NCBI GenBank assembly: GCA_036388775.1
Contig: DASVRD010000002.1
Coordinates: forward strand, 1,482 to 65,481
From: Pyrinomonadaceae bacterium
GTDB taxonomy: Bacteria; Acidobacteriota; Blastocatellia; Pyrinomonadales; Pyrinomonadaceae
Length of the DNA: 64,000 nucleotides
Reading direction: 5' to 3'
Position 1 is the first letter of the stretch, and the number at the start of each line of letters is the position of its first letter. This document shows positions 4,401 through 63,211 of this stretch, piece by piece. Below the pieces are notes generated by a model, which was not told the DNA's origin, did no database searches, and saw only the letters and a program-made list of their open reading frames with translations. The position numbers were made by a program, and so were the translations under genes.

Positions 4401-5138
4401 TTGCTGACCAACGCGATCAAATTTACCCCGTCGGGCGGCAAAATCGTCGTCAAGCTCGATTGCAACGAAACCCGCGCCGAATTAAAAGTCATTGATTCGG
4501 GAGTCGGCATCGAGCCGGAGTTTTTGCCTTTTGTTTTCGACCGCTTTCGTCAGGCGGACAGCTCTTCAAAACGCAAACACGGCGGTCTCGGTTTAGGTTT
4601 GGCAATCGTCAAACACCTCGTCGAAATGCACGGCGGCGAAGTTTTCGCCGAAAGCGCAGGCGTCGGCAAAGGCGCGACTTTTACAATTCGCCTGCCGATG
4701 CACAGCCGCGTCGGATTGAGTGAAGCGGAAAAAATATTCGCGGTTGAAGAAAAAGAACAGGATTTGGAAAAATTGAATTTGCTTGTCGTTGACGACGACA
4801 CGGATGCGCTCGAAATGCTGAGAACAATGCTGTCCTCGCGCGGCGCGCAAGTTCAAACGGCTGCGTCGGCAATCGAAGCTCTGAAAATTGTCGAAAAAAA
4901 AGTCCCGGATGTTTTAGTCAGCGACATCGGAATGCCGGAAATGAACGGAATGGAGTTTATCGGCAAAATCCGGCAATCAAAAAACAAACGTCTGCGGCAA
5001 ATTCCGGCAATTGCTCTGACAGCTTACGCTTCAGCCGAAGACCGCGAGCGCATCTTAGCTTCCGGGTTTAATCAATATCAACGAAAGCCGGTAAATTTCG
5101 CCGATTTAATTGCCAACATCAAAAATATTTGTTCGTAG
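1461..5138 (+). CDS. cytoplasmic multi-PAS/GAF hybrid sensor histidine kinase with C-terminal receiver
   Basis: Track ORF 1401-5138; I prefer ATG 1461 (MLTETILL). Several PAS-like modules and a GAF-like block. H-box FLAVLSHELRTPLN, ATPase motifs DSGVGI and GGLGLGLAIVKHLVEMHGG, receiver LLVVDDD...DVLVSDIGMPEMNG...ALTAYA. No TM segment seen. Confidence 0.9.
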   Translation: MLTETILLVADSDAEQKTQDELHRQLALFQLSYDPIFASDFDGGIVYWNQGCEQLYGYSIGEALGKSSHALMKSDFPVSFDDYRQTLEKTGRWTGKIRRLCKDNRVLTIESRQMLTAIGGKRIVLEANRDVTEQSLAEEKLREAEERYRAFIEQSSEGIWRFELDEPIPTTLAVEEQLKLAYERGFLAECNDAMAKMYGFDSADQIIGARLADLFVTEDPANEAYLRAFLESGYRLTEAESHEKDADGHDVYFSNNLIGVVENGKLFRAWGTQRDVTKLKESEKVLVRYRLVSAQARDIVLMVRPTGEIVEANAAAARAYGYTQAELLTMNIADLRAPDSLTELARQIEQANLHGILFETVHRRKDGITFDVEVSAVGADIGDERFLLSIIRDISERKQAEEKLRESEVRFRKMADNLPVMVWVTDADGSCTYLNRLWYEFTGQMPETSLGLGWISAVHRDDQKRAEEAFLSANERRGEFYVEYRLRRRDGEYRWMIDSAQPRFDESGEFLGYTGSVVDIHERKVIEQQVSFQLNLTQTITDNTQSCLLMMDADGFCTFANHATERVTGFKPEDLIGEILHYKIHHTRPDGSPFPKEQCPLDKALPLHEAVVGYEDVFVHKNGHFYPVRCSGRPIFKSGEPVGTVIEVQDITEEKRAREALLKAERQAAEEYQALLSRIVPLAQTLGTARDLTAIYRAIGDFVRASMPCIGFFVSFYDSDKNLRTGAYGWAEGAELDIASLPPTPLTQDGGPNSQAIFQQQTIVVGNYRQTMANRPHIVIGEENGIVPDSSLIAPMIVMGRIIGTLEVQAYESAAFNRDHVVSLEMASNLAAVAIENVRLLEIEANARQEAEIANRSKDEFLAVLSHELRTPLNSMFGWVRMLSTGQLDAEKTRRAVEVIERNINLQTKLIEDILDVSRIISGKIRLENRQFDFLPLIKSVTEVAQPTAETKNVELVTEFDSEACILQGDAERLQQVVNNLLTNAIKFTPSGGKIVVKLDCNETRAELKVIDSGVGIEPEFLPFVFDRFRQADSSSKRKHGGLGLGLAIVKHLVEMHGGEVFAESAGVGKGATFTIRLPMHSRVGLSEAEKIFAVEEKEQDLEKLNLLVVDDDTDALEMLRTMLSSRGAQVQTAASAIEALKIVEKKVPDVLVSDIGMPEMNGMEFIGKIRQSKNKRLRQIPAIALTAYASAEDRERILASGFNQYQRKPVNFADLIANIKNICS

Positions 5139-5266
5139 TTCTTAATTTGTTCGTTGATCGTAGTTCGTTGTTCGTTGCAAATCGCCAAAGAACGTTGTCG
5201 TTTTAATTTCAAACGCTACTTAAAACTGAGAAAAACAACGAACGACGAACCACGAACTACGAACAA
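5129..5266. repeat. heptamer-array hairpin element (TTCGTWG type), imperfect, fills convergent intergenic gap
   Basis: Outer 13-bp perfect stem: ttgttcgtagttc (5129-5141) with gaactacgaacaa (5254-5266). Inner stem 5163-5177 with 5236-5250 (15 bp, 1 mismatch). Arms are tandem TTCGTTG/TTCGTAG units. The left arm contains the kinase stop codon TAG 5136-5138, and the right arm ends 1 nt before the Crp stop codon (5267-5269). Confidence 0.7.
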
Positions 5267-5959
5267 TTAGAATTTTAAAGCCTGAAAACATTCGCACGCT
5301 TCCGCTTCGAGCAGCTTGCGGTCATGGACGCGAACGGTTCCGCGCGCGTAGGAAATCGCGCCTTTTTCCTGCATTGCTCCGGCAACGTTGGTGACTCCGG
5401 CGCGGCGCGCGCCGAGCTTTCTGGCAATCGTTTCATGCGTCAGGGGAATCTCGTCATTTCCGGCAAGCTCGTGAACGAGCAGCAGCCAAAAACAAAAACG
5501 CTGCTGCAAGCTGTGTCGCCCGTTGCAAACCGCACGCTGCGAAACTTGGCGCATTAGATTGCCGTAAAAACTGAGCAGCAGTGAACGCAGCTCATCATTT
5601 GTGGCGGCAAAATCGCGTATCACCGCAGTTTCCATTTTGAGAGCTTCGCCGGCTTTTAAAACGGTCGTACAGTTGCGTGCGATTTGCTCGCCGAAAATCG
5701 CCTGAATTCCAATGACTCCTTCGCGTCCCGTCAAACAAACTTCGGCGCTTGAGCCGTCTTCCATCAAACTGCAATAAGAAACGACGGCATCGAGCGGAAA
5801 ATAAATCGAGCCGATGGCGTCTTCGACTTCGTAAAGCGGTTGTTCGGCTTCCAAAACAATCGGTCTGGTATGAGCGAGCAGATTGTTTTTTTCAGACAAT
5901 GGCAAAGCGTTAATCAAATGATTACCGAAAGGAGAAATCTGTGCGGTTTTAGTCTGCAT
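5267..5959 (-). CDS. Crp/Fnr family transcriptional regulator (cNMP-binding domain + C-terminal HTH)
   Basis: 230 aa. Beta-roll effector domain (YFPLDAVVSY...GREGVIG), then HTH THETIARKLGARRAGVTNVAGAMQEKGAISYARG and tail EACECF. Confidence 0.85.
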   Translation of the reverse strand: MQTKTAQISPFGNHLINALPLSEKNNLLAHTRPIVLEAEQPLYEVEDAIGSIYFPLDAVVSYCSLMEDGSSAEVCLTGREGVIGIQAIFGEQIARNCTTVLKAGEALKMETAVIRDFAATNDELRSLLLSFYGNLMRQVSQRAVCNGRHSLQQRFCFWLLLVHELAGNDEIPLTHETIARKLGARRAGVTNVAGAMQEKGAISYARGTVRVHDRKLLEAEACECFQALKF

Positions 5960-6034
5960 AAATGGGGAATGAAAAAGGACAAGAGGAATTATAAAAATAA
6001 TTTCCCCGTTGTCCCCACAGTTTTGCGCCGCCTT

Positions 6035-7387: not shown

Positions 7388-9508
7388 ATGTCGGTTTATA
7401 CGGAGCACTCAAGGAATTGGCAATTTAAAGGTCGGAATAATATTTCAAATAGCAGCAGCGAGAAAGCGTCGAAAAATGTTTTTTGGGCGGAAAGCGAAGA
7501 ATCCTGTTCTGCGCTCGTCACTCAAAATCCCACTCCTATCTGGCGGATCGAACTGAAACACGGTGTCTCGGCTTCGCTCGGCGAAAAAGAACAAATCGAG
7601 CAAATCGAGCGTTTCGGGTTTCTTGCCGAATGCAACGAAGCTCTGGCGCGCTCGTTTGGCTGCGAATCGTCAGTTGAAATGATTTGTCTTTTCGGGGAGC
7701 GCTTTCCCGCCGATTTGTTTGCCGACACGCAAATGTTTTTGCGCGATTTTATTCAATCCGGCTATCGGCTGGAAAACGTGAAAAGCGTTCGTAGCGACTC
7801 TGCGGGAAATGAGCGTCATTTTTCCACAAACGTTTTCGGAGTTGTCGAAAACCGCCGTTTAACTCAAATTTGGGGTATGCAGAGCGAAGAAAAACCGGCT
7901 TCGACGGAAAGCGGCGATTTTTATCAAGCCGTGATTGATTCGATGCTAGAACACATCGCCATTATTGATGAAAACGGTCAAATTATCGCAACGAACGATG
8001 GCTGGAAACGATTTGCCGTAAATAACAACGGAAACGATAAAAAAAAGATAGATGTCGGCGCAAACTATTTTGAAGTTTGCCGCGTGGACGGCGGCGAGCT
8101 TGCCCGGCAGGTCGAGGAAGGCATTCATGAGGTTTTAAACAAACAAAAAGATTATTTCACCGTCGAATATCCTTGCCACAGTCCATCGGGCGAGCAACGC
8201 TGGTTTTTGCTGCACGTAACGCCGCTCTCCGGCACAAACGGCGCGGTCGTTTCGCATTTGAACGTCACCAAACGAAGAAAAGCCGAACAGGAACGTCAAA
8301 AAGCGCTCGAAGAACTAAAAAGGGCGGCGGAGGAAAATGAAATCGTCAATCGAATGAAAGACGAGTTTCTGTCGGTGATTTCGCACGAATTACGCACGCC
8401 GCTGACTTCGATGCTCGGTTGGACGCGGCTGATTCGTTCGGGCAAGCTCGACGATAAATCAATCGCGCAGGGGCTTGAAACAATCGAGCGCAACACGCTC
8501 GTTCAATCGCGTCTGATTGAAGATTTGCTCGACGTTTCGCGCATTATCAACGGCAAAATCAAGCTCGAAGCGTTTCCGGTCAAGATTCGCTCGCTCGTCG
8601 AAACGGCGGTTGAATCAATCAAACCGACGGCTTCGATCAAACAGATCGCGGTCGAGTTTCGTTCGGAGATTGACGACGCCACTGTTTATGCAGACCCGCG
8701 CCGAATCCAGCAGGTTTTGTGGAATTTGCTCTCGAATGCCATCAAATTTACGCCGCGCAACGGTTTCGTGCTGGTTAATTTAAGTGCCACCAATGATGCG
8801 ATCAAAATTTCCGTGACCGACAACGGAATCGGCATTGCGTCGGAATTTTTGCCGCATCTTTTTAAGCATTTCCGCCAGCAGGACGCTTCGATCACGCGCA
8901 AACACGGCGGTCTCGGTTTGGGGTTGTCAATTGTGCGGCATTTAATCGAGCTGCACGGCGGACAGGTTAAAGCCGAAAGCGCGGGCGAGGGCGAAGGCTC
9001 AGCTTTTACATTCAGCTTGCCGCTGATGAACGCCCGCGTCGAATCGCTCGAAAACATCAACAACGTCGTCGCTTCCGAAAGCTTCGACGCGCCGAATAAA
9101 ACCGCCGCGCCGCGAAAGCTCGTCGGCGTCAATCTGCTGCTTGTCGAAGACGACGCGGACAGTCTTGAATTATTGGCGTTTTTGTTCGAGTCAACCGGCG
9201 CGACGGTCAGAACCGCAAATCTGGCGAGCGTTGCTTTTGATAAATTTCAGGAAAACCCGCCGGATTTATTGATTTCCGATATTGGAATGCCGGACGAAGA
9301 CGGTTACAGCTTGATTCAAAAAATCCGTCGCCTGCCGCCCGAAAAAGGCGGAAACGTTCCGGCGATTGCACTGACGGCTTACGCCAAAAACGAAGACCGT
9401 TTAAAGGCTCTTTCAAGCGGTTTTCAGCGGCACATTAAAAAACCGATTGAGCCGGTGGATTTAATCGAGCAGGTTGCCGAAATGCTCGAACAGAAAAAAA
9501 ATATTTAA
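7388..9508 (+). CDS. PAS-domain hybrid sensor histidine kinase with C-terminal receiver
   Basis: Track ORF 7343-9508; ATG 7388 (MSVYTEHS) preferred. H-box FLSVISHELRTPLT, GGLGLGLSIVRHLIELHGG, receiver LLLVEDD...DLLISDIGMPDEDG...ALTAYA. The N-terminal PAS (GFLAECNEALARSFG...FGVVENRRL) is paralogous to one in 1461-5138 (GFLAECNDAMAKMYG...IGVVENGKL). Confidence 0.9.
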   Translation: MSVYTEHSRNWQFKGRNNISNSSSEKASKNVFWAESEESCSALVTQNPTPIWRIELKHGVSASLGEKEQIEQIERFGFLAECNEALARSFGCESSVEMICLFGERFPADLFADTQMFLRDFIQSGYRLENVKSVRSDSAGNERHFSTNVFGVVENRRLTQIWGMQSEEKPASTESGDFYQAVIDSMLEHIAIIDENGQIIATNDGWKRFAVNNNGNDKKKIDVGANYFEVCRVDGGELARQVEEGIHEVLNKQKDYFTVEYPCHSPSGEQRWFLLHVTPLSGTNGAVVSHLNVTKRRKAEQERQKALEELKRAAEENEIVNRMKDEFLSVISHELRTPLTSMLGWTRLIRSGKLDDKSIAQGLETIERNTLVQSRLIEDLLDVSRIINGKIKLEAFPVKIRSLVETAVESIKPTASIKQIAVEFRSEIDDATVYADPRRIQQVLWNLLSNAIKFTPRNGFVLVNLSATNDAIKISVTDNGIGIASEFLPHLFKHFRQQDASITRKHGGLGLGLSIVRHLIELHGGQVKAESAGEGEGSAFTFSLPLMNARVESLENINNVVASESFDAPNKTAAPRKLVGVNLLLVEDDADSLELLAFLFESTGATVRTANLASVAFDKFQENPPDLLISDIGMPDEDGYSLIQKIRRLPPEKGGNVPAIALTAYAKNEDRLKALSSGFQRHIKKPIEPVDLIEQVAEMLEQKKNI

Positions 9509-9731
9509 AGGGCGAATTAATTTTTCGCTCTTTAAATATTTCAATTTGTACGAATCAAAGCCGTTGCTTGTACTGAATTCGCTCGCAAATCTGTTTCCAA
9601 AGAAACTAAAACTTCATATTAAAAAATAATATCTTGCCAAAGCGCCGATGTTTATTGCATTCCGGCGCTCTGGCATATTCTTTGCCCATAAATCGGCGAA
9701 CGTAAATTTTAATAATAGGAGATTAAAAATT

Positions 9732-9905: not shown

Positions 9906-9942
9906 CTTGATTTTTGATTGATTTTAAGGGAGGTGGACATCC

Positions 9943-10220: not shown

Positions 10221-11300
10221 ATGAAATTAAAAAAAGTTTCCCAACAAACAATCGTTATCACGGGCGCGACGAGCGGAATCGGTTTGACGACCGCGCGAAT
10301 GGCGGCGAGAAAGGGCGCGCGGCTCGTTTTAATTGCCCGAAATGAAGAAGCCCTACGCCAATTGGCGGACGAGCTAAATTCCAAAAACACCGAAGCCATT
10401 TATTTCGCCGCTGACGTTGCGGATGAAAACGCTTTACAAAATGCGGCGGATGCGGCAATCGCAAAATTCGGCGGTTTCGATACGTGGGTAAACAACGCGG
10501 GAGTCTCGATTTACGGCGAAATTCTGGAAACGCAGCTTGATGATATGCGCCGCCTTTTCGACACGAATTTTTGGGGCGTTGTAAACGGCTCGCGCGTTGC
10601 GGCTGAACATTTAAAAAATCGCGGCGGCGCTTTAATCAATGTCGGCAGCGTATTGTCAGACCGCGCGATTTCGATTCAAGGCGTTTATTCCGCATCGAAA
10701 CACGCGGTCAAAGGCTTTACAGACGCTTTGCGGATGGAGCTTGAATCTGAAAATTATCCTGTCTCCGTCACGTTAATCAAACCGAGCGCAATCAACACGC
10801 CTTACACCGAACACGCGCGCAACCTGATGCCGCGAGAGCCGAATGTTCCGCCGCCGGTTTACGCGCCCGAATTGGTCGCTGAAGCGATTCTGTTCTGCGC
10901 GCAAAACGTTGTCAGGGATTTTACGGTCGGCGAAGGCGGAAAAATGATTTCGCTGATGGGCAACCTTGCGCCGCGTTTGACCGACAAAGCGATGGAATGG
11001 TCGGCTGCCGCAACACAGCAAAAGGCTTCTCCCAATCCGGGCAATCGTCCCGACAGTCTTTACGAAACTCATTCCGATTTACGCGAGCGAGGCAATTACG
11101 ACGGAATCGTTTTCGAGGAAAGTCTGTATCAGCGAGCGAAACTGAATCCGCTCTTGACGAGCGCCATTTTAATCGGCGGCGCGGCTGCGCTGGTGGCTGT
11201 GGTCGCTGGCAAATCTAATCGGGAGAGAAATGGAGATGAAGTCAATCACAGGAATCTTCAAAATGAACAGCCCCGCTCGCTCGAAGTCGGACACAGCTAA
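10221..11300 (+). CDS. SDR family oxidoreductase with about 100 aa C-terminal extension ending in a hydrophobic segment
   Basis: 359 aa. Cofactor motif ITGATSGIGLTTA, NNAG, catalytic YSASKHAVKGF. C-terminal LLTSAILIGGAAALVAVVAG looks like a membrane anchor. Confidence 0.85.
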   Translation: MKLKKVSQQTIVITGATSGIGLTTARMAARKGARLVLIARNEEALRQLADELNSKNTEAIYFAADVADENALQNAADAAIAKFGGFDTWVNNAGVSIYGEILETQLDDMRRLFDTNFWGVVNGSRVAAEHLKNRGGALINVGSVLSDRAISIQGVYSASKHAVKGFTDALRMELESENYPVSVTLIKPSAINTPYTEHARNLMPREPNVPPPVYAPELVAEAILFCAQNVVRDFTVGEGGKMISLMGNLAPRLTDKAMEWSAAATQQKASPNPGNRPDSLYETHSDLRERGNYDGIVFEESLYQRAKLNPLLTSAILIGGAAALVAVVAGKSNRERNGDEVNHRNLQNEQPRSLEVGHS

Positions 11301-15635: not shown

Positions 15636-16201
15636 TTTTTCTCCTCCTTCGCTTCCGGTAACTGGAATATTCTTTTGCCCTGGCGAGTGACGATAACGTT
15701 TGGGCTGTCTCCGACGGCAATGAGACGGACGGAATGGCGATTATCGCTGTCGTGTATTTGCAAATTTGCGCCTTTTTCGTCGTTGGCGAGAAACATCGCC
15801 GTTTGCCCCTGCACCGTGTCGAGCGTCAAAGCCACTGTTCCCGGCTCGTCTGAAGTAAAATACCCGCTTCGCTCGTTGCCTTCGGCGTCCATTAATAAAA
15901 TTCCTGATACCGCTCCGTTTCGTTTATATCGCTTTCCCAGAAGCAGCGGGTCGGGAAGCGGCGCGCCGATTTGAACTCGTTCCCTGCCTTTTTCGTCAAC
16001 TATTATCAATCCGCGCGCTCGCAGCACAGAGTCCGGTGCGGCAACCGAACCGGCATTTGTTTTTCCGATAAAAACAGATACTGAGACAGCCGCCGTCATT
16101 AAAAACAGCAGCGTATAAAATCCCCAACTCAAACGACGGTTTTGCCGCTCAAGCTTGGCGACGGTTTCTTTAATTTCTTTTATTTCATTTTCTTCAATCA
16201 T
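15632..16201 (-). CDS. single-pass membrane protein, unknown function
   Basis: 189 aa. N-terminal coiled region, TM WGFYTLLFLMTAAVSVSVFIG, beta-rich ectodomain. Its stop overlaps the WD40 start by 4 nt, suggesting translational coupling. Confidence 0.6.
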   Translation of the reverse strand: MIEENEIKEIKETVAKLERQNRRLSWGFYTLLFLMTAAVSVSVFIGKTNAGSVAAPDSVLRARGLIIVDEKGRERVQIGAPLPDPLLLGKRYKRNGAVSGILLMDAEGNERSGYFTSDEPGTVALTLDTVQGQTAMFLANDEKGANLQIHDSDNRHSVRLIAVGDSPNVIVTRQGKRIFQLPEAKEEKK

Positions 16202-24974: not shown

Positions 24975-25122
24975 GCGTTTGCGCAAATTGCTTTTGAATT
25001 GAAAGAGAAAAATGCCTGCGAAGGTGAAACGGAAAGCCGCTTTTAATTAAATAATCCGGCGGCAGAATGAAAGAGATAAATGTATGGAATCTTTTTATAA
25101 ACAAACAACCATCGCGTGCACG

Positions 25123-25548
25123 ATGCTGCCAGCCGCGTTTTCCGCAAAATCATATCCGGTTGAAACAATGTTTAATTTACATTACCAAATCGTTCTGCGT
25201 GTTGCGGACGAGGCAAATCCGATTGAGGAAAAATGGCGCTTGCAGTTTTATAAATATCTCGCAAGCTGCGTCAAAATCTGCGGCGGAAGAGTTGAAACAA
25301 TCGGCGGCGCGCCGAATCAGGTGCATTTGCTCATCGCTTTATGCTCGACGAAAGCTCTCGCCCAATTTGTGCGTGAGTTGAGATTACTTTCTCAAACCTG
25401 GGTGCGGCGAAAATTGCAAATTCCCGATTTCGCCTGGCAGGAAGGCGGCGAAGCTTTTACCGTCAGCCTGACGCAGCTCGCACGAGTCAAAGCTTTCATT
25501 CAACGGCGCGACGCACATTATCGGCAACACAGTTCGCAGCAGGAATAA
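25123..25548 (+). CDS. IS200/IS605-type Y1 (HUH) transposase-like protein with degenerate catalytic motifs
   Basis: Pattern NLHYQIVLRV ... NQVHLLIAL ... FAWQEGGEAFTVS ... VKAFIQRRDAHYRQHS follows the TnpA(IS200)-like layout. It has Q-V-H where H-u-H is expected, and F where I expect the catalytic Y (comparison from memory). Confidence 0.6.
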   Translation: MLPAAFSAKSYPVETMFNLHYQIVLRVADEANPIEEKWRLQFYKYLASCVKICGGRVETIGGAPNQVHLLIALCSTKALAQFVRELRLLSQTWVRRKLQIPDFAWQEGGEAFTVSLTQLARVKAFIQRRDAHYRQHSSQQE

Positions 25549-25836
25549 GCCTAACATTGGCAAAAAAAGGAGAAAGAAATGCCTGCAAAAAGGAAGTAAT
25601 CATCGTCCGCGAACTGATCCACGCCGGATGCAAAACGCGGTCGCTCCGGGCGGCTGAAACCCGTAGCCGCAACTAGTTTCAATCACAAAAACAAACCCTT
25701 TTCCCGGCTCTGCTTTACAGGAGCGGATAAAGCTGCGCGCGGCGTCGCCCGCAGAAACGGGTTGGATAAATCAACGATTGGCTGTGCTGCCAATCAAAAC
25801 CTAAAACTAAAAATTCAAATAATAAGGAGAAAGTAA

Positions 25837-28170: not shown

Positions 28171-29133
28171 ATGGATGAAGCAGTAGTTCCAAATTCAATT
28201 CGTTGTCGTTATTGCGGTCAGCGCAATCAGGTTAAAACCAATGGAAACGCGGGCGGGGGAAACGCGGTTTGCGGAAAATGCCGTTTGCCGCTTTCCGACG
28301 CGCCGCACAAAAAATTCGCGGATTTAAACAAACACGATTATGTTCACCCGGAGGACAGCCGCGCGCTCGCCGCTCTGCGCGCGATTCCCGGTATTGATTC
28401 GGCTTTAAAGAAATTGCTCGCCGTGACGGGCGAATCGGCGATTCGCGTTTCGTTTATGGCTTCGGCGGTTAAAGTCACGCCGCTGCAATGTCCCGATTTA
28501 TACGCCAAATTGCAAATCGCCTGCACGACGCTCGGCGTTGATATGCCGGAGCTTTACGTCCAGCAAAGCCCGATTGTTAATGCTTTTACAGGCGGAGTCG
28601 AAAAACCGATTATCGTTTTGCACTCGTCTCTGATTGAAAGATTGACGGACGAAGAAGTTTTGGCGGTCGTCGCGCACGAAGTCGGGCATATTCACGCCGA
28701 ACACGTTCTTTATTTAACCGCCGCCAGATTAATCGAAGCGCTTGCAACCGTTGCGCTCGCGGCGACTCCGGTTGTCGGAATTGTCAAAGACTTGATTACG
28801 GCTTCGATGCGCGGCGCTTTGCTCGCCTGGGCGCGGAGGGCGGAATTGTCCTGCGACCGCGCCGCTTTGCTCGTCACGCAGGATGCGAACGTCATCGGGC
28901 GGACGATGATGAAATTGTGCGGCGGAACTTTCGCGTCGAAAGTTGATTACGATCTTTTCCTTGAACAAGCGCGCGAGTTTCAAGCCAACTACGACAAAAA
29001 ACAGCTCGACCGTTTTTGGGCTGACATTATTTCTTCGGGAATGACGCATCCGTTTCCGGTCTGGCGCGTTGCGGAAATCCTAAAATGGGTTGAAGGCGGC
29101 GAGTATCAAAGTCTGATGAACCGCGCTAAGTAA
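28171..29133 (+). CDS. M48 family zinc metallopeptidase with N-terminal zinc-ribbon
   Basis: 320 aa. CRYCGQ...CGKCRLPL (2x CxxC), HEXXH as VVAHEVGHIHAEH, and a downstream E in AELSCDRAA. Confidence 0.8.
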   Translation: MDEAVVPNSIRCRYCGQRNQVKTNGNAGGGNAVCGKCRLPLSDAPHKKFADLNKHDYVHPEDSRALAALRAIPGIDSALKKLLAVTGESAIRVSFMASAVKVTPLQCPDLYAKLQIACTTLGVDMPELYVQQSPIVNAFTGGVEKPIIVLHSSLIERLTDEEVLAVVAHEVGHIHAEHVLYLTAARLIEALATVALAATPVVGIVKDLITASMRGALLAWARRAELSCDRAALLVTQDANVIGRTMMKLCGGTFASKVDYDLFLEQAREFQANYDKKQLDRFWADIISSGMTHPFPVWRVAEILKWVEGGEYQSLMNRAK

Positions 29134-29148
29134 AACAAGTAAATAGTC

Positions 29149-29200
29149 AATAGTAAATCGCGAATCGTGACTGGAAAATTACGATTCGCGATTTACTATT
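29149..29200. repeat. heptamer-array hairpin element (TAAATCG type)
   Basis: aatagtaaatcgcgaatcgt (29149-29168) is the perfect 20-bp complement of acgattcgcgatttactatt (29181-29200), with a 12-nt loop. More degenerate 7-mer units flank both arms (29138-29214). It starts 5 nt after the M48 stop codon. Confidence 0.85.
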
Positions 29201-29288
29201 TACGATTCACTATTGAACGATTTACTAAATCCTTGAATTAAGGTAATAAAGATGGAAAAGGAAATTCGCGGTTTCCTTTTTCAAAACG

Positions 29289-33448: not shown

Positions 33449-33511
33449 TTCTCTGTGTTCTCTGTGGTGAGATTTATCTTGAAAAAATCTGCACAGAGAA
33501 GTCACAGAGGA
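33449..33511. repeat. heptamer-array hairpin element (CACAGAG type), imperfect
   Basis: ttctctgtg (33458-33466) pairs with cacagagaa (33492-33500). After a 2-nt bulge, ctctgtg (33451-33457) pairs with cacagag (33503-33509). It lies 21 nt after the metallophosphoesterase stop. Confidence 0.6.
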
Positions 33512-38276: not shown

Positions 38277-38279
38277 AAA

Positions 38280-40438: not shown

Positions 40439-40735
40439 TTGGCAAATATTCTCCTAATTGATTGAAATAAAAACGAGAGAGAATCAATGATTATGCCAAT
40501 TATCGAATGAAGTCAATAGTTTTTGTCAAACAAGAGTTAAATTGCGTCTTTCGCGGTTTAATTCGTTGAAAAACGAAAAGCACAACGGCAAAGGACGCGA
40601 AGGTTTTACGCAAAGGACGCAAAAAAGATTTAGTTTATTTTTGTCGTCTGCTTTACATTGCAATCGTTCTCTTAATTAGAAACAATTTTCAATAAATATT
40701 GACGATTCGCCGCGCTTGGCTGACAATCTGTTTGA

Positions 40736-53880: not shown

Positions 53881-54026
53881 AAACAGAATTCTCCGTAAAA
53901 AAAGCAAAACCAGATTAAATCGGTTCGATTCTTTGCGGCGAGAAAAAATCTGTGAGCGGTGCAAAGCAGGTGTTAAGCGGCGTTTGAAAGAAATGCGAAT
54001 CAGGCTCTCAAAGTCGAAAAAGCGTG

Positions 54027-54067
54027 AAAAAAGAGCGGATTTCAATATTTGAAATCCGCTCTTTTTT
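54027..54067. terminator. strong hairpin with A/T-run flanks downstream of the NYN gene
   Basis: aaaaaagagcggatttcaa (54027-54045) is the perfect complement of ttgaaatccgctctttttt (54049-54067). Confidence 0.75.
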
Positions 54068-54081
54068 CAACTGCCCAATTT

Positions 54082-56474: not shown

Positions 56475-57827
56475 ATGAGTTTACCTTTAGTTGCCATCAT
56501 CGGACGCCCTAATGTGGGGAAATCTACGCTGTTTAATCGCTTGACGAAAACGCGCAACGCGATTGTCGGGGACCAGCCGGGAATCACGCGCGACCGGATT
56601 TACGGTGAAGTCGAATGGCGCAGCGGGCGCTTTTCGCTTGTTGATACGGGCGGAATCGTGCCGGACGACGAAGCCGTGATTCCCAGCAATATCTTCAAAC
56701 AAGCCGAGTTCGCCATCGCCGAAGCGCAGGCGATAATCTGGGTTGTTGACGCGCGCGCCGGGATTACGTCGCTCGATCAGGAACTCGTGAAATTGCTGCG
56801 GATGACCGGAAAACCGATCATCGTCGCCGCCAACAAAGCCGAAACAAACCGCGTTGACCACGAGGCGCAGGAATTCGCGCAGTTCGGTTTCGACGCGATT
56901 ATGCCGGTTTCAGCCGAACACGGCGACGGAATCGGCGACCTTCTCGATCTGCTTTACGAAACTCTGGATTTCGCGACGGTTTCGGAAGAAAAAAAGCCGG
57001 ACGAAATCAATCTCGCTATTATCGGGCGTCCGAACGTCGGGAAATCTTCGCTTTTAAATAAATTATTGGGCGAAGAGCGCGTGATTGTCTCGCCGATTGC
57101 CGGAACGACGCGCGACGCGATTGACACGACATTCGAGTTTGAAAATCAGAAGTTTCGGTTGATTGACACAGCCGGAATTCGCCGCAAAGGCAAAACTACG
57201 GAAGCGGCGGAAAAAATGTCGGTGATTATGGCGCGCAAATCCCTGGAGCGCGCAGACATCGCCGTTGTCGTCATTGACGCGACCGAAGGCGCGACGAATC
57301 TAGACGCAAACATTGCCGGATATGCGATTGACGAAGGCTGCGGCGTGATTTTGGCGATTAATAAATGGGATTTGATTGCCGACAAAGAAACCAACACCGC
57401 GCTCGAATTTGAACGGCAATTGCGCGACCAGATGAAATTCCTGGATTTCGCGCCCGTTGTCACGATTTCCGCATTATTGGGACAGCGAGTTTCAAAAATT
57501 CTGCCGCTCGCCGTGCAAATCAATGAGGCGAGACATCTCCGCGTGCCGACTTCAAAGCTCAACAAGTTTTTTGAAGAAACAATCTCGCAGCCGCGCGGCG
57601 GCGGAACGCCCGCGCCCGTTAAAGGCGGCTTTTCGCGTCTGCACATTCAATATTTAACCCAAGTCGGAGTTCGTCCGCCGACTTTTCTTTTATTTACTTC
57701 GGGCGGCAAAGCCGGGCTGCATTTTTCTTACACGCGCTATCTGGAAAATCGCCTGCGTGAGGAGTTTGAATTTTTCGGAACTCCGATTAAATTAGTTGAG
57801 CGTCACAAAATGCGTAATAAAAAGTAA
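56475..57827 (+). CDS. der: ribosome-associated GTPase Der (EngA), two GTPase domains + KH-like domain
   Basis: 450 aa. GRPNVGKSTLFN and GRPNVGKSSLLN P-loops, DTGG/DTAG, NKAE/NKWD. Confidence 0.95.
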   Translation: MSLPLVAIIGRPNVGKSTLFNRLTKTRNAIVGDQPGITRDRIYGEVEWRSGRFSLVDTGGIVPDDEAVIPSNIFKQAEFAIAEAQAIIWVVDARAGITSLDQELVKLLRMTGKPIIVAANKAETNRVDHEAQEFAQFGFDAIMPVSAEHGDGIGDLLDLLYETLDFATVSEEKKPDEINLAIIGRPNVGKSSLLNKLLGEERVIVSPIAGTTRDAIDTTFEFENQKFRLIDTAGIRRKGKTTEAAEKMSVIMARKSLERADIAVVVIDATEGATNLDANIAGYAIDEGCGVILAINKWDLIADKETNTALEFERQLRDQMKFLDFAPVVTISALLGQRVSKILPLAVQINEARHLRVPTSKLNKFFEETISQPRGGGTPAPVKGGFSRLHIQYLTQVGVRPPTFLLFTSGGKAGLHFSYTRYLENRLREEFEFFGTPIKLVERHKMRNKK

Positions 57828-57837
57828 GTTTTCACCG

Positions 57838-57919
57838 CCGAGACGCAGAGACGCAGAGAGAAGTTAAAGAGAAAAAATAAAGAGTTTAATTTTGTTTTCT
57901 CTGCGTCTCTGCGTCTCGG
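57838..57919. repeat. heptamer-array hairpin element (GCAGAGA type)
   Basis: ccgagacgcagagacgcagaga (57838-57859) is the perfect 22-bp complement of tctctgcgtctctgcgtctcgg (57898-57919), with a 38-nt A-rich loop. It starts 11 nt after the der stop and ends 12 nt before the next start. Confidence 0.85.
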
Positions 57920-57931
57920 TGGTTAAAAATT

Positions 57932-59404
57932 GTGGAAATAGTTTTGTTGGTTGCAAGATTGATTCTCGCCGCTGTTTTCGCAGTTGCCGGAATTGCCAAA
58001 CTCTTTGACCGCGCGGGCAGCGAAAAGGCGATTGTTGATTTTGGAGTTCCCGAATCAATTGCCAAGCCTTTGAGTTTGCTGTTGCCACTGGCGGAAATTG
58101 CGACCGCGATTTTGCTGCTGCCGCTTGCGACGGCTTGGTTCGGGGCAGTTTCAGCGCTCGCGCTGCTGCTCGTTTTTGTCGGCGGCATCGCTTACAATTT
58201 TGCGCGCGGAAACACGCCGGATTGTCATTGTTTCGGGCAAATTCATTCGGAGCCGGTCGGCTGGTCAACTTTAATTAGAAATTCGATTTTAGCCGCAATC
58301 GCCGGTTTTCTGGTTTTTGCAGGGCGCGAAACGGCGGGCGCGAGCGCGTTTGCATGGCTCGATGATTTAAACGCGGCTGAAAAAATGAATTTAATTTTCG
58401 GCGTTTTAACAATCGGCTTGCTCGCGTTTGTCGCTTTTAAGCTCAAAAGCATTCAGGCGCAACAGATCGTTTTGCAAAGACACATCGAATTGCTTCAATT
58501 AGGCGAAGGCTCTGCGGCAGTAGAACACGAACACGCCGCGCCGCCCGCCGAAGGTCTTCCGCTCGGCGCGCTGCTTCCCGCTTTTTCTTTGCCGGACACA
58601 AACGGCAAACAATTTGTGACCGAAGATTTATTGAAAACAAACAAGCCTTCGCTCTTGTTTTTTGTCAGCCCAAGCTGTAAACCCTGCGCGGGGCTGTTGC
58701 CGGAAATCGAAGATTGGCGGCGACAGTTCGGCGAAAAAATAAATTTCGTCTTTTTTAGTTCGGGCGCGGCAAAGGAAAACGTCGAAAAATTCGGCTCGGA
58801 TAAAATCGTGCTGCTCCAAAAAGACAACGAAACGATGACGCTTTTCCGCGCAAAATGGACTCCGACCGCAATACTGATCAATGCCGACGGTACTATCGGC
58901 AGTCGTTTGGCTACCGGCGATGGGGCGATTCGCGCTCTTGCGCAATCCATTCAACCGAATTTATCGAACGGTCACGTTCCGAAGAGCTTTTTAATTTCGC
59001 AAAACGGCTCGAAAATCGGAGAGCAAGCACCGGAATTTTCCCTGCAAAATCTGGACGGGAAACAGGTAAAATTAGAAGATTTTCGCGGCAAGAAAACTCT
59101 GCTTTTGTTTTGGGGAACAGCCTGTGGTTTTTGTCAGACGATGCTGCCGGATTTGCAAAAATGGGAACGTCAAGCTAACCGAGCCGCCGAATTAGTCGTG
59201 GTTTCGCGCGGCGAAATTGAAACAAATCGGAAACAAAATCTGAAGTCGCCGATTTTGCTCGAACAAGCCACCGAAATCCAAAATCTGTTCGGCGCAAACG
59301 GAACGCCGACCGGAGTAATAATTGATGAAGACGGAAAAATCGCTTCGGACGTAGCTGTCGGTGCCGATGAAGTTTTCGCTCTCGTTGGAGAATATAAAAG
59401 ATAG
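57932..59404 (+). CDS. MauE/DoxX-like membrane domain fused to two thioredoxin-fold (TlpA/redoxin-like) domains
   Basis: 490 aa. 4-5 N-terminal TM helices with PDCHCFG. Two CxxC domains: FFVSPSCKPCAGL and LFWGTACGFCQTM. Confidence 0.75.
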   Translation: MEIVLLVARLILAAVFAVAGIAKLFDRAGSEKAIVDFGVPESIAKPLSLLLPLAEIATAILLLPLATAWFGAVSALALLLVFVGGIAYNFARGNTPDCHCFGQIHSEPVGWSTLIRNSILAAIAGFLVFAGRETAGASAFAWLDDLNAAEKMNLIFGVLTIGLLAFVAFKLKSIQAQQIVLQRHIELLQLGEGSAAVEHEHAAPPAEGLPLGALLPAFSLPDTNGKQFVTEDLLKTNKPSLLFFVSPSCKPCAGLLPEIEDWRRQFGEKINFVFFSSGAAKENVEKFGSDKIVLLQKDNETMTLFRAKWTPTAILINADGTIGSRLATGDGAIRALAQSIQPNLSNGHVPKSFLISQNGSKIGEQAPEFSLQNLDGKQVKLEDFRGKKTLLLFWGTACGFCQTMLPDLQKWERQANRAAELVVVSRGEIETNRKQNLKSPILLEQATEIQNLFGANGTPTGVIIDEDGKIASDVAVGADEVFALVGEYKR

Positions 59405-59406
59405 AC

Positions 59407-59474
59407 TACAGAGATACAGAGGCACAGAGAGAAAATTAAAACAATAAACATCTCTGTATTTCTGTGTCTGTGTG
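59407..59474. repeat. heptamer-array hairpin element (ACAGAGA type), imperfect
   Basis: Left arm 59407-59430 (tacagagatacagaggcacagaga) pairs with right arm 59451-59474 (tctctgtatttctgtgtctgtgtg): 24 positions, 2 mismatches, 4 G-T pairs. It starts 3 nt after the stop codon, and the right arm overlaps the predicted tgt start. Confidence 0.65.
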
Positions 59475-60734
59475 TTGAAGTTTGTGGCGGATAAGGCAAT
59501 TGATTGGAAAGTCGCCGCGCGAGAGGGAAATGCGCGAGCCGGGATTTTAAGAACTCGTCGTTCGATTATCGAAACGCCGGTTTTTATGCCGGTCGGCACA
59601 CAAGGCACGGTTAAAGGAATTCGTTTTGAAACCCTCGAAAACGAACTTGATGCGCGTGTAATTCTGGGAAACACTTATCATCTCTGGCTGCGTCCCGGAA
59701 CTGAAATTTTGCGCGCGGTCGGTGGTTTGCATAAATTTAATTCGTGGAATCGCTCGATTTTGACCGATTCCGGCGGATTTCAAGTTTTTTCCCTCACGGA
59801 TTTAAGAAAATTAAAAGAAGAAGGCGTCGAGTTTCGCTCGCACATTGACGGCAGCCTCAGATTTTTATCGCCGGAAATCTCGATGGAGATTCAAGCCGCG
59901 CTCGGTTCCGAAATCGTGATGGTTTTGGACGAATGCCCGCCGGGACAAGCGGATTTCGATTTCGCCCGCAAAAGTCTGGAAATGACCGCGCGGTGGGCGG
60001 CGCGTTCAAAACAAAAATTTAACGAGCTGCAAGAAGCCGGAATGGATACGGGATTTATCGGAAAGGATGAAGGCGGAAGGATGAAGGATGAAAATGAAGA
60101 CAATTCATCTTTAATTCATCCTTCATCCTTCCGCCTTCATCCTTCAGATTTGAGCGGACGACAGGCTTTGTTCGGAATCGTTCAGGGCGCTTCGCATTTG
60201 CCTTTGCGCCGCGAAAGTTTGGAAAAGACTGTGGAAATCGGTTTTGACGGTTACGCTATCGGCGGTTTGAGCGTCGGCGAAGAAAAATCTGTGATGTATG
60301 ACACAATCGAATTTCTCGCGCCGCAAATGCCCGAAAATGCGCCGCGTTATTTGATGGGAGTCGGGACGCCGGAAGATTTGGTCGAAGCCGTTTTTCGCGG
60401 CGTTGATATGTTCGATTGCGTTATACCGACGAGAAACGGGCGAACCGGAACTGCGTTTACTTCGCGCGGCAAAATCAACATCCGCAACGCAAAACACGCG
60501 ACGGATTCCGCGCCGCTCGATGAAAGCTGCGATTGCGCGGTTTGTCGGCGACATTCGCGAGCGTTTTTGCGGCATTTATATCAGACCGGAGAAATGCTCG
60601 CGGCGATTTTGATCTCGCATCACAATCTGGCGTTCTTCCTTGACACGATGAAAAGAGTGCGTCATTCTATCCGACTTGGCATTTTCGGCGAATTCCGTCA
60701 AGACTTTCTCCGGCAAATTAAAGAAAGCGAATAA
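59472..60734 (+). CDS. tgt: tRNA-guanine transglycosylase (queuine tRNA-ribosyltransferase) carrying an about 40 aa insertion
   Basis: 420 aa. ETPVFMPVGTQGTVKG, LTDSGGFQVFSL, VLDEC, LFGIVQG, GYAIGGLSVGE, zinc site CDCAVCRRHSRAFLRH. Start uncertain (GTG 59472, TTG 59475 or GTG 59484). Confidence 0.9.
   Translation: MLKFVADKAIDWKVAAREGNARAGILRTRRSIIETPVFMPVGTQGTVKGIRFETLENELDARVILGNTYHLWLRPGTEILRAVGGLHKFNSWNRSILTDSGGFQVFSLTDLRKLKEEGVEFRSHIDGSLRFLSPEISMEIQAALGSEIVMVLDECPPGQADFDFARKSLEMTARWAARSKQKFNELQEAGMDTGFIGKDEGGRMKDENEDNSSLIHPSSFRLHPSDLSGRQALFGIVQGASHLPLRRESLEKTVEIGFDGYAIGGLSVGEEKSVMYDTIEFLAPQMPENAPRYLMGVGTPEDLVEAVFRGVDMFDCVIPTRNGRTGTAFTSRGKINIRNAKHATDSAPLDESCDCAVCRRHSRAFLRHLYQTGEMLAAILISHHNLAFFLDTMKRVRHSIRLGIFGEFRQDFLRQIKESE
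60063..60144. repeat. heptamer-array hairpin element (GGATGAA type) inside the tgt reading frame
   Basis: aaggatgaaggcggaaggatgaaggatgaa (60063-60092) is the exact reverse complement of ttcatccttcatccttccgccttcatcctt (60115-60144), with a 22-nt loop. It is translated in-frame as KDEGGRMKDENEDNSSLIHPSSFRLHPS. Confidence 0.9.
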
Positions 60735-60779
60735 AACCGGCGCAAAGACAGGCGCGCCGGTTTCCGTCATAAAATTGTT

Positions 60780-61076: not shown

Positions 61077-61096
61077 AAAGCGTAAGATTTTAAACG

Positions 61097-61402
61097 ATGG
61101 AAACGTTAGCAATTATTTTACAGGAAGGCGGAGGCGCGGCAGCGTTGCTTTTTCAGCTCGCGCCGTTTTTCCTGATTTTTATCGTCTTTTATTTTCTCGT
61201 TATCGCGCCGCAGCGCCGCCGGGCGCAGGAAATGCAGAATATGATCACCGAGTTGAAAATCAACGACACCGTTGTCACTAACGGCGGCGTGATCGGTAAA
61301 ATCAAAGAAATCAAAGACAAAAGTTTTATTATTCAAAGCGCCGACAAATCGTTTATCGAAATCGCTCGCTCGGCGGTTGTCGGAAAAGAAGTTGAACCGT
61401 AA
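61097..61402 (+). CDS. yajC: preprotein translocase subunit YajC
   Basis: 101 aa. One TM helix, YFLVIAPQRRRAQEMQNMITELKINDTVVTNGGVIGKI. Located just upstream of secD. Confidence 0.9.
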   Translation: METLAIILQEGGGAAALLFQLAPFFLIFIVFYFLVIAPQRRRAQEMQNMITELKINDTVVTNGGVIGKIKEIKDKSFIIQSADKSFIEIARSAVVGKEVEP

Positions 61403-61458
61403 ATCGTAAATCGTAAATCGCAAGTAGATGTTTATCTTGCGATTTACGATTTACGATT
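61402..61458. repeat. heptamer-array hairpin element (TAAATCG type) between yajC and secD
   Basis: aatcgtaaatcgtaaatcgcaag (61402-61424) is the perfect 23-bp complement of cttgcgatttacgatttacgatt (61436-61458), with an 11-nt loop. The left arm begins in the yajC stop codon (TAA 61400-61402), and the right arm ends 8 nt before the secD ATG. Confidence 0.9.
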
Positions 61459-61466
61459 CACTAAAA

Positions 61467-63143
61467 ATGAAGAAACGTAATATTTTAGTTCGATTTATCA
61501 TTATCGTCGCCGTCACCTTACTGGCGATTTACGCCGTTTTCGGACCTCGACGTGCCCCGGCAGCGGAAGATTTTACCTGGAACGGCATTAAAAACAATAT
61601 CGCCCAAAATATTCACCTCGGACTCGATTTAAAAGGAGGCACGCATCTTGTAATGCGCGTGCAAACCGAGCAATATTTGTCGAAACTGGCGGAGAATAAT
61701 GCCGAAGCCGCCAGGACTGCGGCAACCAAAGCGAATTTGCCCGTCGGCGAAGCCAGAGCCATTGCCGAACCAAATAACCGGAATTTTCAGGTTGTTTTAA
61801 ATACGACGGATGCGGCAAGGCAGCAGGAAATCGCCGATGCGGTGAAAAAAGAAGTTGATTTTAGTCTCTGGACGCAATCAACAACGGGTGATTCGATTGT
61901 CTGGTCGCTTCCTATTCAAGCCCAGGCGACGCTCAGCCGTCAGGCGGTAGATCAGGCAAAAGCGATTATTGACAGCCGCATCAACCGGCTCGGAGTCGCC
62001 GAACCGACGCTGCAAAATCATGGCGCTTCGGATTCGCACCAGCTTCTTTTGCAAATGCCGGGCGTGCAAGACCCGGAGCGAATCAAGAAAACTCTGACCG
62101 TCGAATCGCGTCTTGAGCTGATGAAAGTCGTCACGCCGAAAGGTCAATTTCAGACGTTTCCGACCGAAGACGCCGCCAAAGCGTCGCTCGGCGGCAACGT
62201 TCCGTCAAATCGCCGCGTTTTGCCGTATGTTGAGCGTGAAGACACGCCCGCGAATCAAAATGAACCGAAAGCTAAACCGACGACTTTTGTAGTTGTCGAA
62301 AATCCGCCGATTATTGACGGCAGCGAGCTGCGTGATGCGACGCCGTTCACGGCAGGCGGAAACAGCTATAACATCAACTTCAATTTGAAACCTTCGGGAG
62401 CGCAGAAATTCGGCGCCTGGACGGGCGCAAATATCGGCGAATATCTCGCCATTGTTTTAAACGGCGAAGTAAAGAGCGCGCCTGTAATCAGGGGACAAAT
62501 CTATGACACAGGGCAAATTGAAGGTCGTTTTACGCAGCAATCGGCGGAAGATTTAGCCGTCACGCTCAAATCCGGCGCGCTTCCCGCTCAAATCGAGTAT
62601 CAGGAAGAGCGCACCGTCGGACCGAGCCTCGGAGCGGATTCGATTCGCTCAGGAGTAACGGCTTCAGTCGCCGGGCTGCTATTCGTAATGGCGTTTATGC
62701 TCTTTTATTATCGCGGCGCGGGCGTAAATGCGGTGATCGCGCTGATTCTGAATATGCTGCTGACACTGGCGGCGCTCGTCTGGTTCGGCGCGACGCTGAC
62801 GCTGCCCGGAATCGCCGGTTTGATTTTGGGAATCGGAATGGCGGTTGACTCGAACGTGCTGATTTTTGAGCGCATCCGCGAAGAATGGCGCGCGGGGAAA
62901 ACCATTCCGCAAGCCGTTGATTTAGGTTTCGACCGGGCGTTTATTACAATTATTGACACGCACGTGACGACGATTATTTCTTCGTTACTGTTGTTTATTT
63001 TCGGAACCGGACCGATTCGCGGCTTCGCCATAACGCTGATTTTAGGGTTGTTGATTAACCTCTTCTCGGCAGTTTATGTGTCCCGCACAATTTTCATTTG
63101 GCTTTTGAGCCGCAAACAGCGTGTCGAGACGCTCAGCATCTAG
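61467..63143 (+). CDS. secD: protein translocase subunit SecD
   Basis: Track ORF starts at 61428 inside the hairpin; ATG 61467 (MKKRNILVRFIIIVAV) preferred. Large periplasmic domain, then the C-terminal 5-TM bundle with GIGMAVDSNVLIFERIREE. Confidence 0.9.
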   Translation: MKKRNILVRFIIIVAVTLLAIYAVFGPRRAPAAEDFTWNGIKNNIAQNIHLGLDLKGGTHLVMRVQTEQYLSKLAENNAEAARTAATKANLPVGEARAIAEPNNRNFQVVLNTTDAARQQEIADAVKKEVDFSLWTQSTTGDSIVWSLPIQAQATLSRQAVDQAKAIIDSRINRLGVAEPTLQNHGASDSHQLLLQMPGVQDPERIKKTLTVESRLELMKVVTPKGQFQTFPTEDAAKASLGGNVPSNRRVLPYVEREDTPANQNEPKAKPTTFVVVENPPIIDGSELRDATPFTAGGNSYNINFNLKPSGAQKFGAWTGANIGEYLAIVLNGEVKSAPVIRGQIYDTGQIEGRFTQQSAEDLAVTLKSGALPAQIEYQEERTVGPSLGADSIRSGVTASVAGLLFVMAFMLFYYRGAGVNAVIALILNMLLTLAALVWFGATLTLPGIAGLILGIGMAVDSNVLIFERIREEWRAGKTIPQAVDLGFDRAFITIIDTHVTTIISSLLLFIFGTGPIRGFAITLILGLLINLFSAVYVSRTIFIWLLSRKQRVETLSI

Positions 63144-63144
63144 T

Positions 63145-63211
63145 AGTTCAAGGTTCAAAGTTCAAGGTTCAAAGTTATTTGCTTTCAACCTTGAACTTTG
63201 AACCTTGAACT
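63145..63211. repeat. heptamer-array hairpin element (RGTTCAA type) between secD and secF
   Basis: agttcaaggttcaaagttcaaggtt (63145-63169) is the perfect 25-bp complement of aaccttgaactttgaaccttgaact (63187-63211). Further 7-mer units extend to 63218 and allow slipped registers. It starts 2 nt after the secD stop. Confidence 0.9.

Follow-up and report, generated by a model that had tools for sequence, protein, structure and literature searches.

Hairpins with tandem-heptamer arms at gene ends in Pyrinomonadaceae and other Blastocatellia

Across 64,000 nucleotides of a Pyrinomonadaceae genome (contig DASVRD010000002.1 of assembly GCA_036388775.1; this whole stretch is called the window below), hairpins whose arms are short tandem arrays, mostly of heptamers, stand in small spacers beside stop codons and, in one case, in frame inside tgt. 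These periodic hairpins are a real, strongly non-random and lineage-enriched feature. They look like palindromic microsatellites, that is, lineage-enriched extragenic hairpins akin to repetitive extragenic palindromes (REPs), and not like terminators or a known RNA. Slippage at the DNA level combined with arm-to-arm template switching, together with some copying between loci, is the best-supported mechanism suggested by the sequence patterns, though we place it somewhat short of an even chance.

An earlier note on the window had listed eight hairpin loci and one degenerate candidate. RNA folding of each locus against 200 dinucleotide shuffles confirmed all eight in place (z -4.2 to -12.1), and none of the 200 shuffles folded equally well. 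The degenerate candidate at about 40541-40625 (40536-40628 on the + strand, two copies of GCAAAGGACGC plus one partial inverted copy) is weak only (z -2.6, two of 200 shuffles folding equally well) and was not counted as a member. Scanning for ungapped stems revealed 11 hairpins in the window with scores of at least 14 (0.1 expected) and six with scores of at least 18 (none expected), and the six hairpins with periodic arms in the window compare with none in 40 dinucleotide-preserving shuffles, which bears out a frequency above that of shuffled sequence. Perfect or near-perfect stems of 20-30 bp were likewise recovered, with 30 of 30 pairs at 60063-60144, 29 of 30 at 63145-63211 and 23 of 23 at 61402-61458. 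Period 7, which had been ascribed to all loci, was found by Tandem Repeats Finder (TRF) at five of them (starting at 5147, 29138, 60063, 61399 and 63145); the elements at 57826-57931 (CGCAGAGA) and 59407-59474 (TACAGAGA) have period 8, and that at 33449-33511 combines a period-9 arm with one of about 11. The proposal of a single architectural class, defined by periodic arms plus symmetry far beyond chance, stands; unit numbers are often unequal between the two arms.

To place these hairpins in a lineage, we compared the window with related and unrelated DNA (contigs are cited by L numbers). The closest homologues of the window Tgt (85-95% identity) come from Pyrinomonadaceae, in the Acidobacteriota class Blastocatellia. 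Seven syntenic contigs of 81-95% nucleotide identity served as close relatives, and wider sets found via Tgt comprised 35 mostly Blastocatellia loci (505 kb) and 45 loci from other phyla (737 kb). A density scan that is blind to unit sequence and counts hairpins with periodic arms gave 11.9 per 100 kb in close relatives, 5.7 in other Blastocatellia and 0.14 in other phyla, the last rising to about 0.4 under a looser scan; 44 of the 52 elements in the unit-blind scan have period 7 or 14, and five have period 8. Counting period-7 arrays of 2.8 copies or more with TRF gave 21, 17.6 and 3.5 per 100 kb for the same three groups. An inverted partner array within 200 nt accompanied 93% (38/41) of these arrays in close relatives, 70% (62/89) in other Blastocatellia and 23% in other phyla, and arrays of period 6, 9 and 12 almost never had one. 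The high share of partnered period-7 arrays therefore means that heptamer arrays in this lineage exist essentially as hairpins. No description of such elements in Acidobacteria was found in the searchable literature.

A looser search uncovered three genuine heptamer-arm hairpins outside Acidobacteriota: AGGCTAA in a Syntrophaceae contig (L044, 871-1018), AATTGAC with a loop of about 105 nt in a Parabacteroides contig (L072, 17705-17873), and TAGTTGC, ending about 5 nt before an ATG, in a Rickettsiales contig (L076, 7749-7814). The architecture therefore occurs sporadically well beyond Acidobacteriota. Scanning metagenomes for three GTTCGTK units revealed heptamer-arm hairpins on contigs of 40-69% G+C; among the matches listed, most are partnerless arrays in unrelated organisms, and hairpins make up about 16 of the 91 determinable arrays. 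One contig with a GTTCGTK hairpin, L147, belongs to Thermoanaerobaculia, another Acidobacteriota class. Such sporadic occurrence fits a general mutational process with a lineage-specific rate or tolerance. On a further metagenome contig (L167, 62% G+C), a GTTCGTG/CACGAAC hairpin at 4736-4852 lies within a 589-aa open reading frame (ORF) with two ABC_tran domains and may be a further in-frame intragenic case. A contig labelled Deferribacteres (L052) carries at 15849-15913 a period-8 hairpin, CTCTGCGT/ACGCAGAG, resembling the CGCAGAGA element of the window, a likeness that could reflect binning error, horizontal transfer or convergence.

As the earlier note had proposed, the elements share no single consensus, and about 28 unit types were found across some 700 kb of related genomes, among them TAAATCG, RGTTCAA, GTTCGTK, GGATGAA, GCGGATT, AAGGCAA, AAGTCCM, GGTRAAT, AGTGATR and GCGGTCG. 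None of the units contains G-tracts, and there is no single G-rich unit of the GGGAATC type. Arms hold two to seven units, with means of 3.9 and 4.2 over 46 distinct pairs, and for half of these pairs the two arms are more than 0.5 unit apart (r = 0.16). One-armed intermediates were encountered between yajC and secD in L006 and in the tgt inserts of L002 and L030. Given the unequal arms, the low correlation and the one-armed arrays, the arms gain and lose units independently.

The gene context of the elements is strongly biased. Apart from the intragenic cases, 39 elements lie between co-directional genes, two between convergent genes and none between divergent genes; within the window, hairpins stand in 6 of the 43 co-directional spacers, in 1 of the 6 convergent ones and in none of the 7 divergent ones, which are the longest class. 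In relatives that lack an element, the spacers measure just 4-30 nt, and therefore the hairpin essentially is the spacer. Both placement claims of the earlier note held: the 5' arm begins -1 to +21 nt from the stop codon, which the elements abut, and several elements finish 4-14 nt ahead of the next start, before which a short unpaired A/T-rich leader remains. In 39 of 49 elements, and in about 21 of 28 unit types, purines prevail in the sense-strand 5' arm. Transcription or gene context also plays a part, as this purine bias and the empty divergent spacers show; behind the bias in orientation and context could be a secondary RNA role, or selection against elements that damage promoters or regions of initiation.

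The view that the elements are not intrinsic terminators was upheld, since a terminator scan of 54-64 kb called none of them and did call ordinary terminators there (54025-54069 and 60733-60764). No T-tract follows the elements, whose tails read CACTAAAAATG or TAAAAATTGTG, and the Rfam 15 covariance models gave no match at gathering score in the 64-kb window. The terminator at 54025-54069 is a perfect 21-bp palindrome with A- and T-tracts 3' of an NYN-domain gene, a classic bidirectional terminator, and its arms are identical in L001, L003 and L004, in contrast with the quick turnover of the periodic hairpins.

The orthologous follow-up of the five elements between der and secF revealed loss, swap and resizing in relatives. 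Comparing the window with its closest relative, L004, revealed flanking genes that are 94-95% identical, yet three of the five element sites differ. The TAAATCG hairpin after yajC (61399-61461, + strand, three units per arm, z -9.6) lies between yajC (61097-61402) and secD (61467-63143); its first unit includes the yajC stop codon, and about 5 nt separate its end from the secD ATG at 61467. An identical hairpin occupies this spacer in GCA_036387315.1, and relatives have 2/2, 3/3 or 4/4 units. In this allele series both arms change unit number together, a point that the earlier note had proposed to test; the pattern is not general, as half of the 46 pairs have arms of unequal unit number. In L006 a largely one-armed CTCATCA array stands in place of the hairpin, about ten loci have a spacer of no more than 4-30 nt, and some more distant genomes have no hairpin in this slot.

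Between secD and secF (start at about 63225), the window carries an RGTTCAA-arm hairpin of period 7/14 (63145-63220, + strand, 29/30 bp, z -10.2) with one additional unit in its right arm, and GTTCGTK replaces RGTTCAA in relatives. The two alleles align in register around a common GTTC/GAAC core, the other three positions having changed across all units of both arms. In this alignment 12 of 23 stem pairs are compensated double changes and just three cells are one-sided. In more distant genomes the slot seems to be taken by GGTRAAT or AGTGATR hairpins, which lie just downstream of secD.

The period-8 hairpin with CGCAGAGA arms and ACCGCC...GGTGGT basal pairs (57826-57931, + strand, z -11.9) makes up the entire spacer between der (56475-57827) and a MauE/thioredoxin gene (57932-59404). 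Both L004 and L005 keep it, L001 and L006 have other units in its place, and L003 lacks it, bearing the CGCAGAGA family in the next spacer instead. That next spacer, between the MauE/thioredoxin gene and tgt, holds in the window a period-8 hairpin with TACAGAGA/CACAGAGA arms (59407-59474, + strand, z -6.4), whose 3' arm runs into the GTG annotated as the tgt start; in relatives the slot is empty or taken by one of five different hairpins. Upstream of der, a BrnT toxin gene with a small partner was observed in L003 (6472-7048) and L006 (6427-7033); L001, L004 and L005 lack this pair at that site, as does the window to judge from BLAST alignments.

Within tgt (59472-60734) lies a perfect 30-bp GGATGAA hairpin (60063-60144, + strand, z -12.1), which adds 75 nt (25 codons) and keeps the frame, at a site corresponding to about three residues of a surface loop in the Zymomonas mobilis TGT structure. 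A regular GGATGAA array would bring an in-frame TGA; the second unit reads GGCGGAA instead and is matched exactly by TTCCGCC in the opposite arm, so that all 30 pairs are kept. In L002 and L007 one arm has lost 21 nt (three units, in frame), in L003 the site is taken by a GCGGATT hairpin, and L030 carries in the loop a perfect, partnerless and in-frame GACTCCA array of 4.7 copies (10603-10635; peptide TPDSRLQTPDSKL). Altogether, 16 of 42 Blastocatellia Tgt genes have an insert in this loop, of at least eight sequence types, with insert peptides reading KDEGGRMKDE...HPSSF or ADCGL...AIRN.

Non-periodic palindromes of 19-38 bp were also found at exactly this loop, in L009 (6041-6155), L011 (7511-7596), L026 (3356-3454) and L040 (about 9473-9574). 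Those of L009, L011 and L026 share a GAACCG...CGGTTC core, of which L040 has a variant (example GTCAGAACCGCCTGCGGTAGCGGGCGGTT), and they encode peptides such as SEPPAVAGG...PPATAGGSD. The Tgt surface loop is an insertion hotspot for palindromes of several kinds. From RW..RS to LFGIVQG, insert-free Tgt measures 36-42 aa in Blastocatellia (L008-L042) versus 23-30 aa in other phyla (L043-L086); the loop is 10-18 residues longer in Blastocatellia, which may be the remnant of an old insertion.

The remaining elements of the window lie outside the region between der and secF. A GTTCGTW heptamer-arm hairpin assigned to neither strand (5126-5270, inner arms 5147-5177 and 5236-5266, 58-nt loop, z -5.35) occupies the convergent spacer from the stop of a PAS/GAF histidine kinase gene (1401-5138, + strand) to that of a Crp-like regulator gene (5267-5959, - strand); its GTTCGTW unit family also occupies the spacer between secD and secF in L002, L004, L007 and L008. 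The TAAATCG/CGAATCG-family hairpin at 29138-29227 (+ strand, arms 29138-29168 and 29181-29211, z -8.9) begins 5 nt 3' of the stop of an M48 peptidase gene (28171-29133). The right-hand arrays at 29191-29227 and 63182-63220 outrun the paired region by one to two units (5.1 vs 3.0 and 5.6 vs 4.6 copies), because of which the hairpins starting at 29138 and 63145 can pair in more than one register. A weaker hairpin of the CACAGAG group (33449-33511, + strand, arms 73% complementary, z -4.2) begins 21 nt past the stop at 33428; its left arm is two copies of TTCTCTGTG (period 9), and its right arm has CACAGAG about every 11 nt.

The mechanism that we tentatively favour, which builds on one of the options in the earlier note (slippage combined with template switching), would begin with a small hairpin in a tiny spacer at a gene end that stalls replication. 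Slipped-strand mispairing would then gain or drop units of about 7 nt in each arm independently, and template switching between the arms (quasi-palindrome correction) would write the changes of one arm onto the other, so that units and arms would evolve in concert and almost purely by Watson-Crick pairs. In E. coli, mutations of the template-switch kind are suppressed by ExoI (xonA) and ExoVII (xseAB). A unit type would spread within a genome by occasional copying between loci. The elements would persist where they do least harm, that is, beside a stop codon, with 5-15 nt left free before the next start and away from promoter spacers, and intragenic ones would persist in permissive protein loops. 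Template switching between the arms of inverted repeats is an established process that homogenises and expands palindromes (PMC7202029, PMC13100816), and work cited in PMC4679880 describes heptamers as more over-represented in bacteria than any other longer simple repeat and ascribes the excess to polymerase slippage. The concerted arms, the lack of a G·U bias, the paired arrays and the stem inside an ORF suit slippage with template switching.

Several observations weigh against slippage with template switching as the account of these elements. Compensated change could also arise from selection for pairing, and the mismatch census (6 G·T vs 15 A·C) is small. The purine-rich 5' arms and the empty divergent spacers suggest a transcription-linked constraint of a kind not predicted by a purely neutral DNA process. 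Array length is confined to about three to five units, identical irregular stretches (a 27-mer in L034; a 25-mer at 29181/61436 in the window) go beyond what slippage and template switching would produce, and we infer both the mechanism and the near-neutrality of the elements from patterns alone.

Selection on RNA offers a different reading of the same stems, namely that they are stem-loops in polycistronic transcripts acting as 3'-end protectors, as RNase III sites (stems of at least 20 bp) or as attenuators without a U-tract that would set the ratios of neighbouring cistrons, slippage being merely the quickest way to a longer stem. Consistent with this are the placement right behind stop codons, where spacers are co-directional or convergent but in no case divergent, the pairing upheld by compensatory changes, the period-7 hairpin between secD and secF in many Blastocatellia despite four different units, the orientation of the purine-rich arm relative to transcription, the extreme stem stability (-25 to -61 kcal/mol) and the A/T-rich unpaired leader that is always kept ahead of the next start. 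If the transcript were selected, however, G·U would be tolerated on the sense strand and A·C would not. Examination of 1030 stem positions in non-redundant periodic hairpins revealed 1001 Watson-Crick pairs, 6 G·T (sense), 15 A·C and 8 others, and the sense and antisense strands fold equally well on average, neither being consistently better. Folding energies, G·U counts and the mismatch census thus show no sense-strand bias, and selected RNA was therefore not taken as the main explanation. Slots are moreover often empty (between yajC and secD in about ten loci, between der and mauE in L003), elements are swapped or lost at about 5% divergence, the perfect 30-bp stem in the tgt ORF can only hinder translation, and a T-tract and an Rfam family are both lacking. 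The few one-sided intermediates, the stem kept in an ORF and the patchy occupancy, together with the mismatch census, favour arm-to-arm copying at the DNA level. We regard selected RNA as possible but on balance unlikely, and by analogy with REPs a secondary role in transcripts, as 3'-end protection or an RNase III site, is possible.

Copying between loci raises the further question of mobility. The same units stand at non-orthologous loci and at two sites of one genome (TRAATCG, AAAGGYA, AGTGATR, GGATGAA and GTCCTTC), at two to nine sites within 1.4 Mb, and L034 has an identical irregular 27-mer at 1134 and 11180. In the window, 29181-29211 and 61436-61461 match at 24 of 25 nt, non-periodic ends included, and GCGATTTACnATTTACGATTCACTA is common to the elements at 29138-29227 and 61399-61461. 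The earlier note's claim of a different heptamer at each locus was accordingly overstated, as these two TAAATCG loci match over 25 nt with one mismatch, and identical units reappear at other loci in relatives. Such irregular stretches at separate loci mean that some copying between loci occurs. One could therefore picture non-autonomous mobile elements, resembling REPINs (REP doublets forming hairpins) or MITEs (miniature transposable elements with inverted repeats), that are copied by a hairpin-recognising enzyme such as a Y1 HUH transposase (of the IS200 type or a REP-associated tyrosine transposase, RAYT), each unit type being one family and hairpins or gene ends its preferred targets. Presence, absence and replacement at orthologous sites, the CGCAGAGA element in the neighbouring spacer of L003, and the use of one Tgt loop by at least eight insert types, non-periodic palindromes included, all suit such elements, as does a Y1_Tnp ORF in the window (25084-25548, 154 aa, Pfam E 5e-11, IS200-like). 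This ORF, however, scores 24 bits against the 55-bit NCBIfam IS200 cut-off, its HUH motif appears degenerate (QVH in the translation), and no periodic hairpins flank it in the 64-kb window; domestication or decay of a Y1 transposase may account for it. On its two sides stand the copies of an imperfect, roughly 25-nt direct repeat (about 25002-25027 and 25566-25593, AAAGAGAAAAATGCCTGCGAAGG and AAAGGAGAAAGAAATGCCTGCAAAAAGG). Comparison of the filled and empty sites between der and mauE (window vs L003) revealed no target-site duplication, inspection of all element ends no shared terminal tag, GTAG and CGTC included, and the replacement between secD and secF aligns in register, as for a change in place. 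Loops are not conserved between copies of one unit family, and element lengths vary with unit number, unlike the uniform length of MITEs. The earlier exclusion of a simple MITE or classical REP family accordingly holds with regard to target-site duplication and tag, and is tempered by the irregular stretches that some copies share; we consider mobile elements of this kind rather unlikely, though with selected RNA they form the main alternatives. An improbable, more speculative variant is a self-propagating class of Acidobacteriota DNA, in which hairpins would write their own arms and be copied to loci and protein loops by a structure-directed activity, for instance a hairpin-targeting enzyme. 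Binding or structural sites at the DNA level, such as cruciforms or arrays bound by protein in a 7-bp register, as REPs bind gyrase or IHF, with a role in nucleoid organisation or replication, would explain the strand symmetry without RNA-type wobble, the uniform period 7 and the narrow range of three to five units. About 28 unrelated units would nevertheless call for many binders or for one indifferent to sequence, a candidate protein did not turn up, and occupancy is patchy among close relatives, which leaves this reading very improbable. Assembly errors can create palindromic repeats, yet the shuffles yielded none, the same elements recur at orthologous positions in independent JGI, NCBI and ENA assemblies (GCA_036387315.1 included), and the tgt insert is in frame in many genomes, so that chance matches or assembly artefacts deserve hardly any credence. 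Integron attC sites were rejected, the genes being syntenic housekeeping genes and GTTRRRY core sites lacking on inspection.

Among known systems, the elements are best described as REP-like palindromes combined with heptamer microsatellites, and the heptamer arrays of Xanthomonas are the nearest published case. Rickettsia palindromic elements, of 100-150 bp, form sequence-conserved families without heptamer periodicity and lie in frame within genes. They resemble the Tgt case as in-frame palindromic inserts at a permissive protein surface site, and differ in host phylum and in that one Tgt loop holds at least eight different inserts across relatives. Elhai et al. (2008) reportedly described small dispersed repeats within heptamer arrays in Nostoc. 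The short tandemly repeated repetitive sequences (STRRs) of cyanobacteria, TAACTGA of Beggiatoaceae and (GATAGRA)n of Chloroflexus are also 7-nt tandem units in intergenic DNA (PMC4679880, PMC6749651), but form direct arrays of one or few units per genome, often upstream of start codons; TAACTGA repeats comprise 169 direct sets and one inverted (PMC4679880), whereas inverted pairing is the rule in the window elements. The features of heterocystous-cyanobacterial STRRs do not apply, as the host is a member of the Pyrinomonadaceae, the pairs are inverted and the unit types many. REPs are imperfect palindromes of 20-40 nt with a GTAG or CGTC tag and a family consensus (PMC3116915, PMC3733652). 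Like REPs, bacterial interspersed mosaic elements and REPINs of Enterobacteria and Pseudomonas, the elements described here are multi-copy, short extragenic palindromes at co-directional or convergent gene ends and inside operons, form hairpins on either strand and vary between strains. REPs lack internal periodicity, in contrast to the near-perfect stems of 20-30 bp built here from tandem 7- or 8-mers, and unlike REPINs the elements have dozens of unit types, no common tag and no RAYT gene that they flank in the 64-kb window.

That symmetric heptamer hairpins were unknown, as the earlier note had supposed, is contradicted by the GGGAATC arrays of Xanthomonas, which form 70-75 convergent inverted pairs per genome (PMC4692102). 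These are head-to-head, intergenic tandem heptamer arrays able to form stem-loops, as here; about 40% are paired, and one G-rich, quadruplex-forming unit is used genome-wide, the arrays are transcribed, and repeat number differs between species with the single or inverted type kept (PMC4692102). The present elements differ by their many AT-rich or mixed units per genome, by pairing in 70-93% of arrays, by a position tight against stop codons or in frame within an ORF, and by lineage-wide enrichment in Acidobacteriota. Quasi-palindrome template-switch mutagenesis (Ripley; Lovett) predicts concerted change from one Watson-Crick pair to another, as seen here, but has been described for point-mutation hotspots and the expansion of inverted repeats at single loci, not for the genome-wide upkeep of periodic hairpins.

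The hosts of these elements are abundant, poorly studied soil bacteria. In this phylum the elements will interfere with gene calling, with the prediction of operons and terminators and with the assembly of metagenome-assembled genomes, and they could be used as high-resolution strain markers. If structure-directed copying were true, they would constitute a new sort of mobile or generative element defined by architecture and not by sequence. If slippage with template switching is correct, two textbook replication errors, slipped-strand mispairing and quasi-palindrome template switching, would act jointly in Acidobacteriota to build and maintain a whole family of structures, and this natural system could be viewed at dozens of loci in several stages of evolution. 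The concerted evolution of palindromes could then be tested directly, and one origin of the hypervariable DNA between genes, and of unusual peptide insertions in conserved proteins such as Tgt, would be explained.

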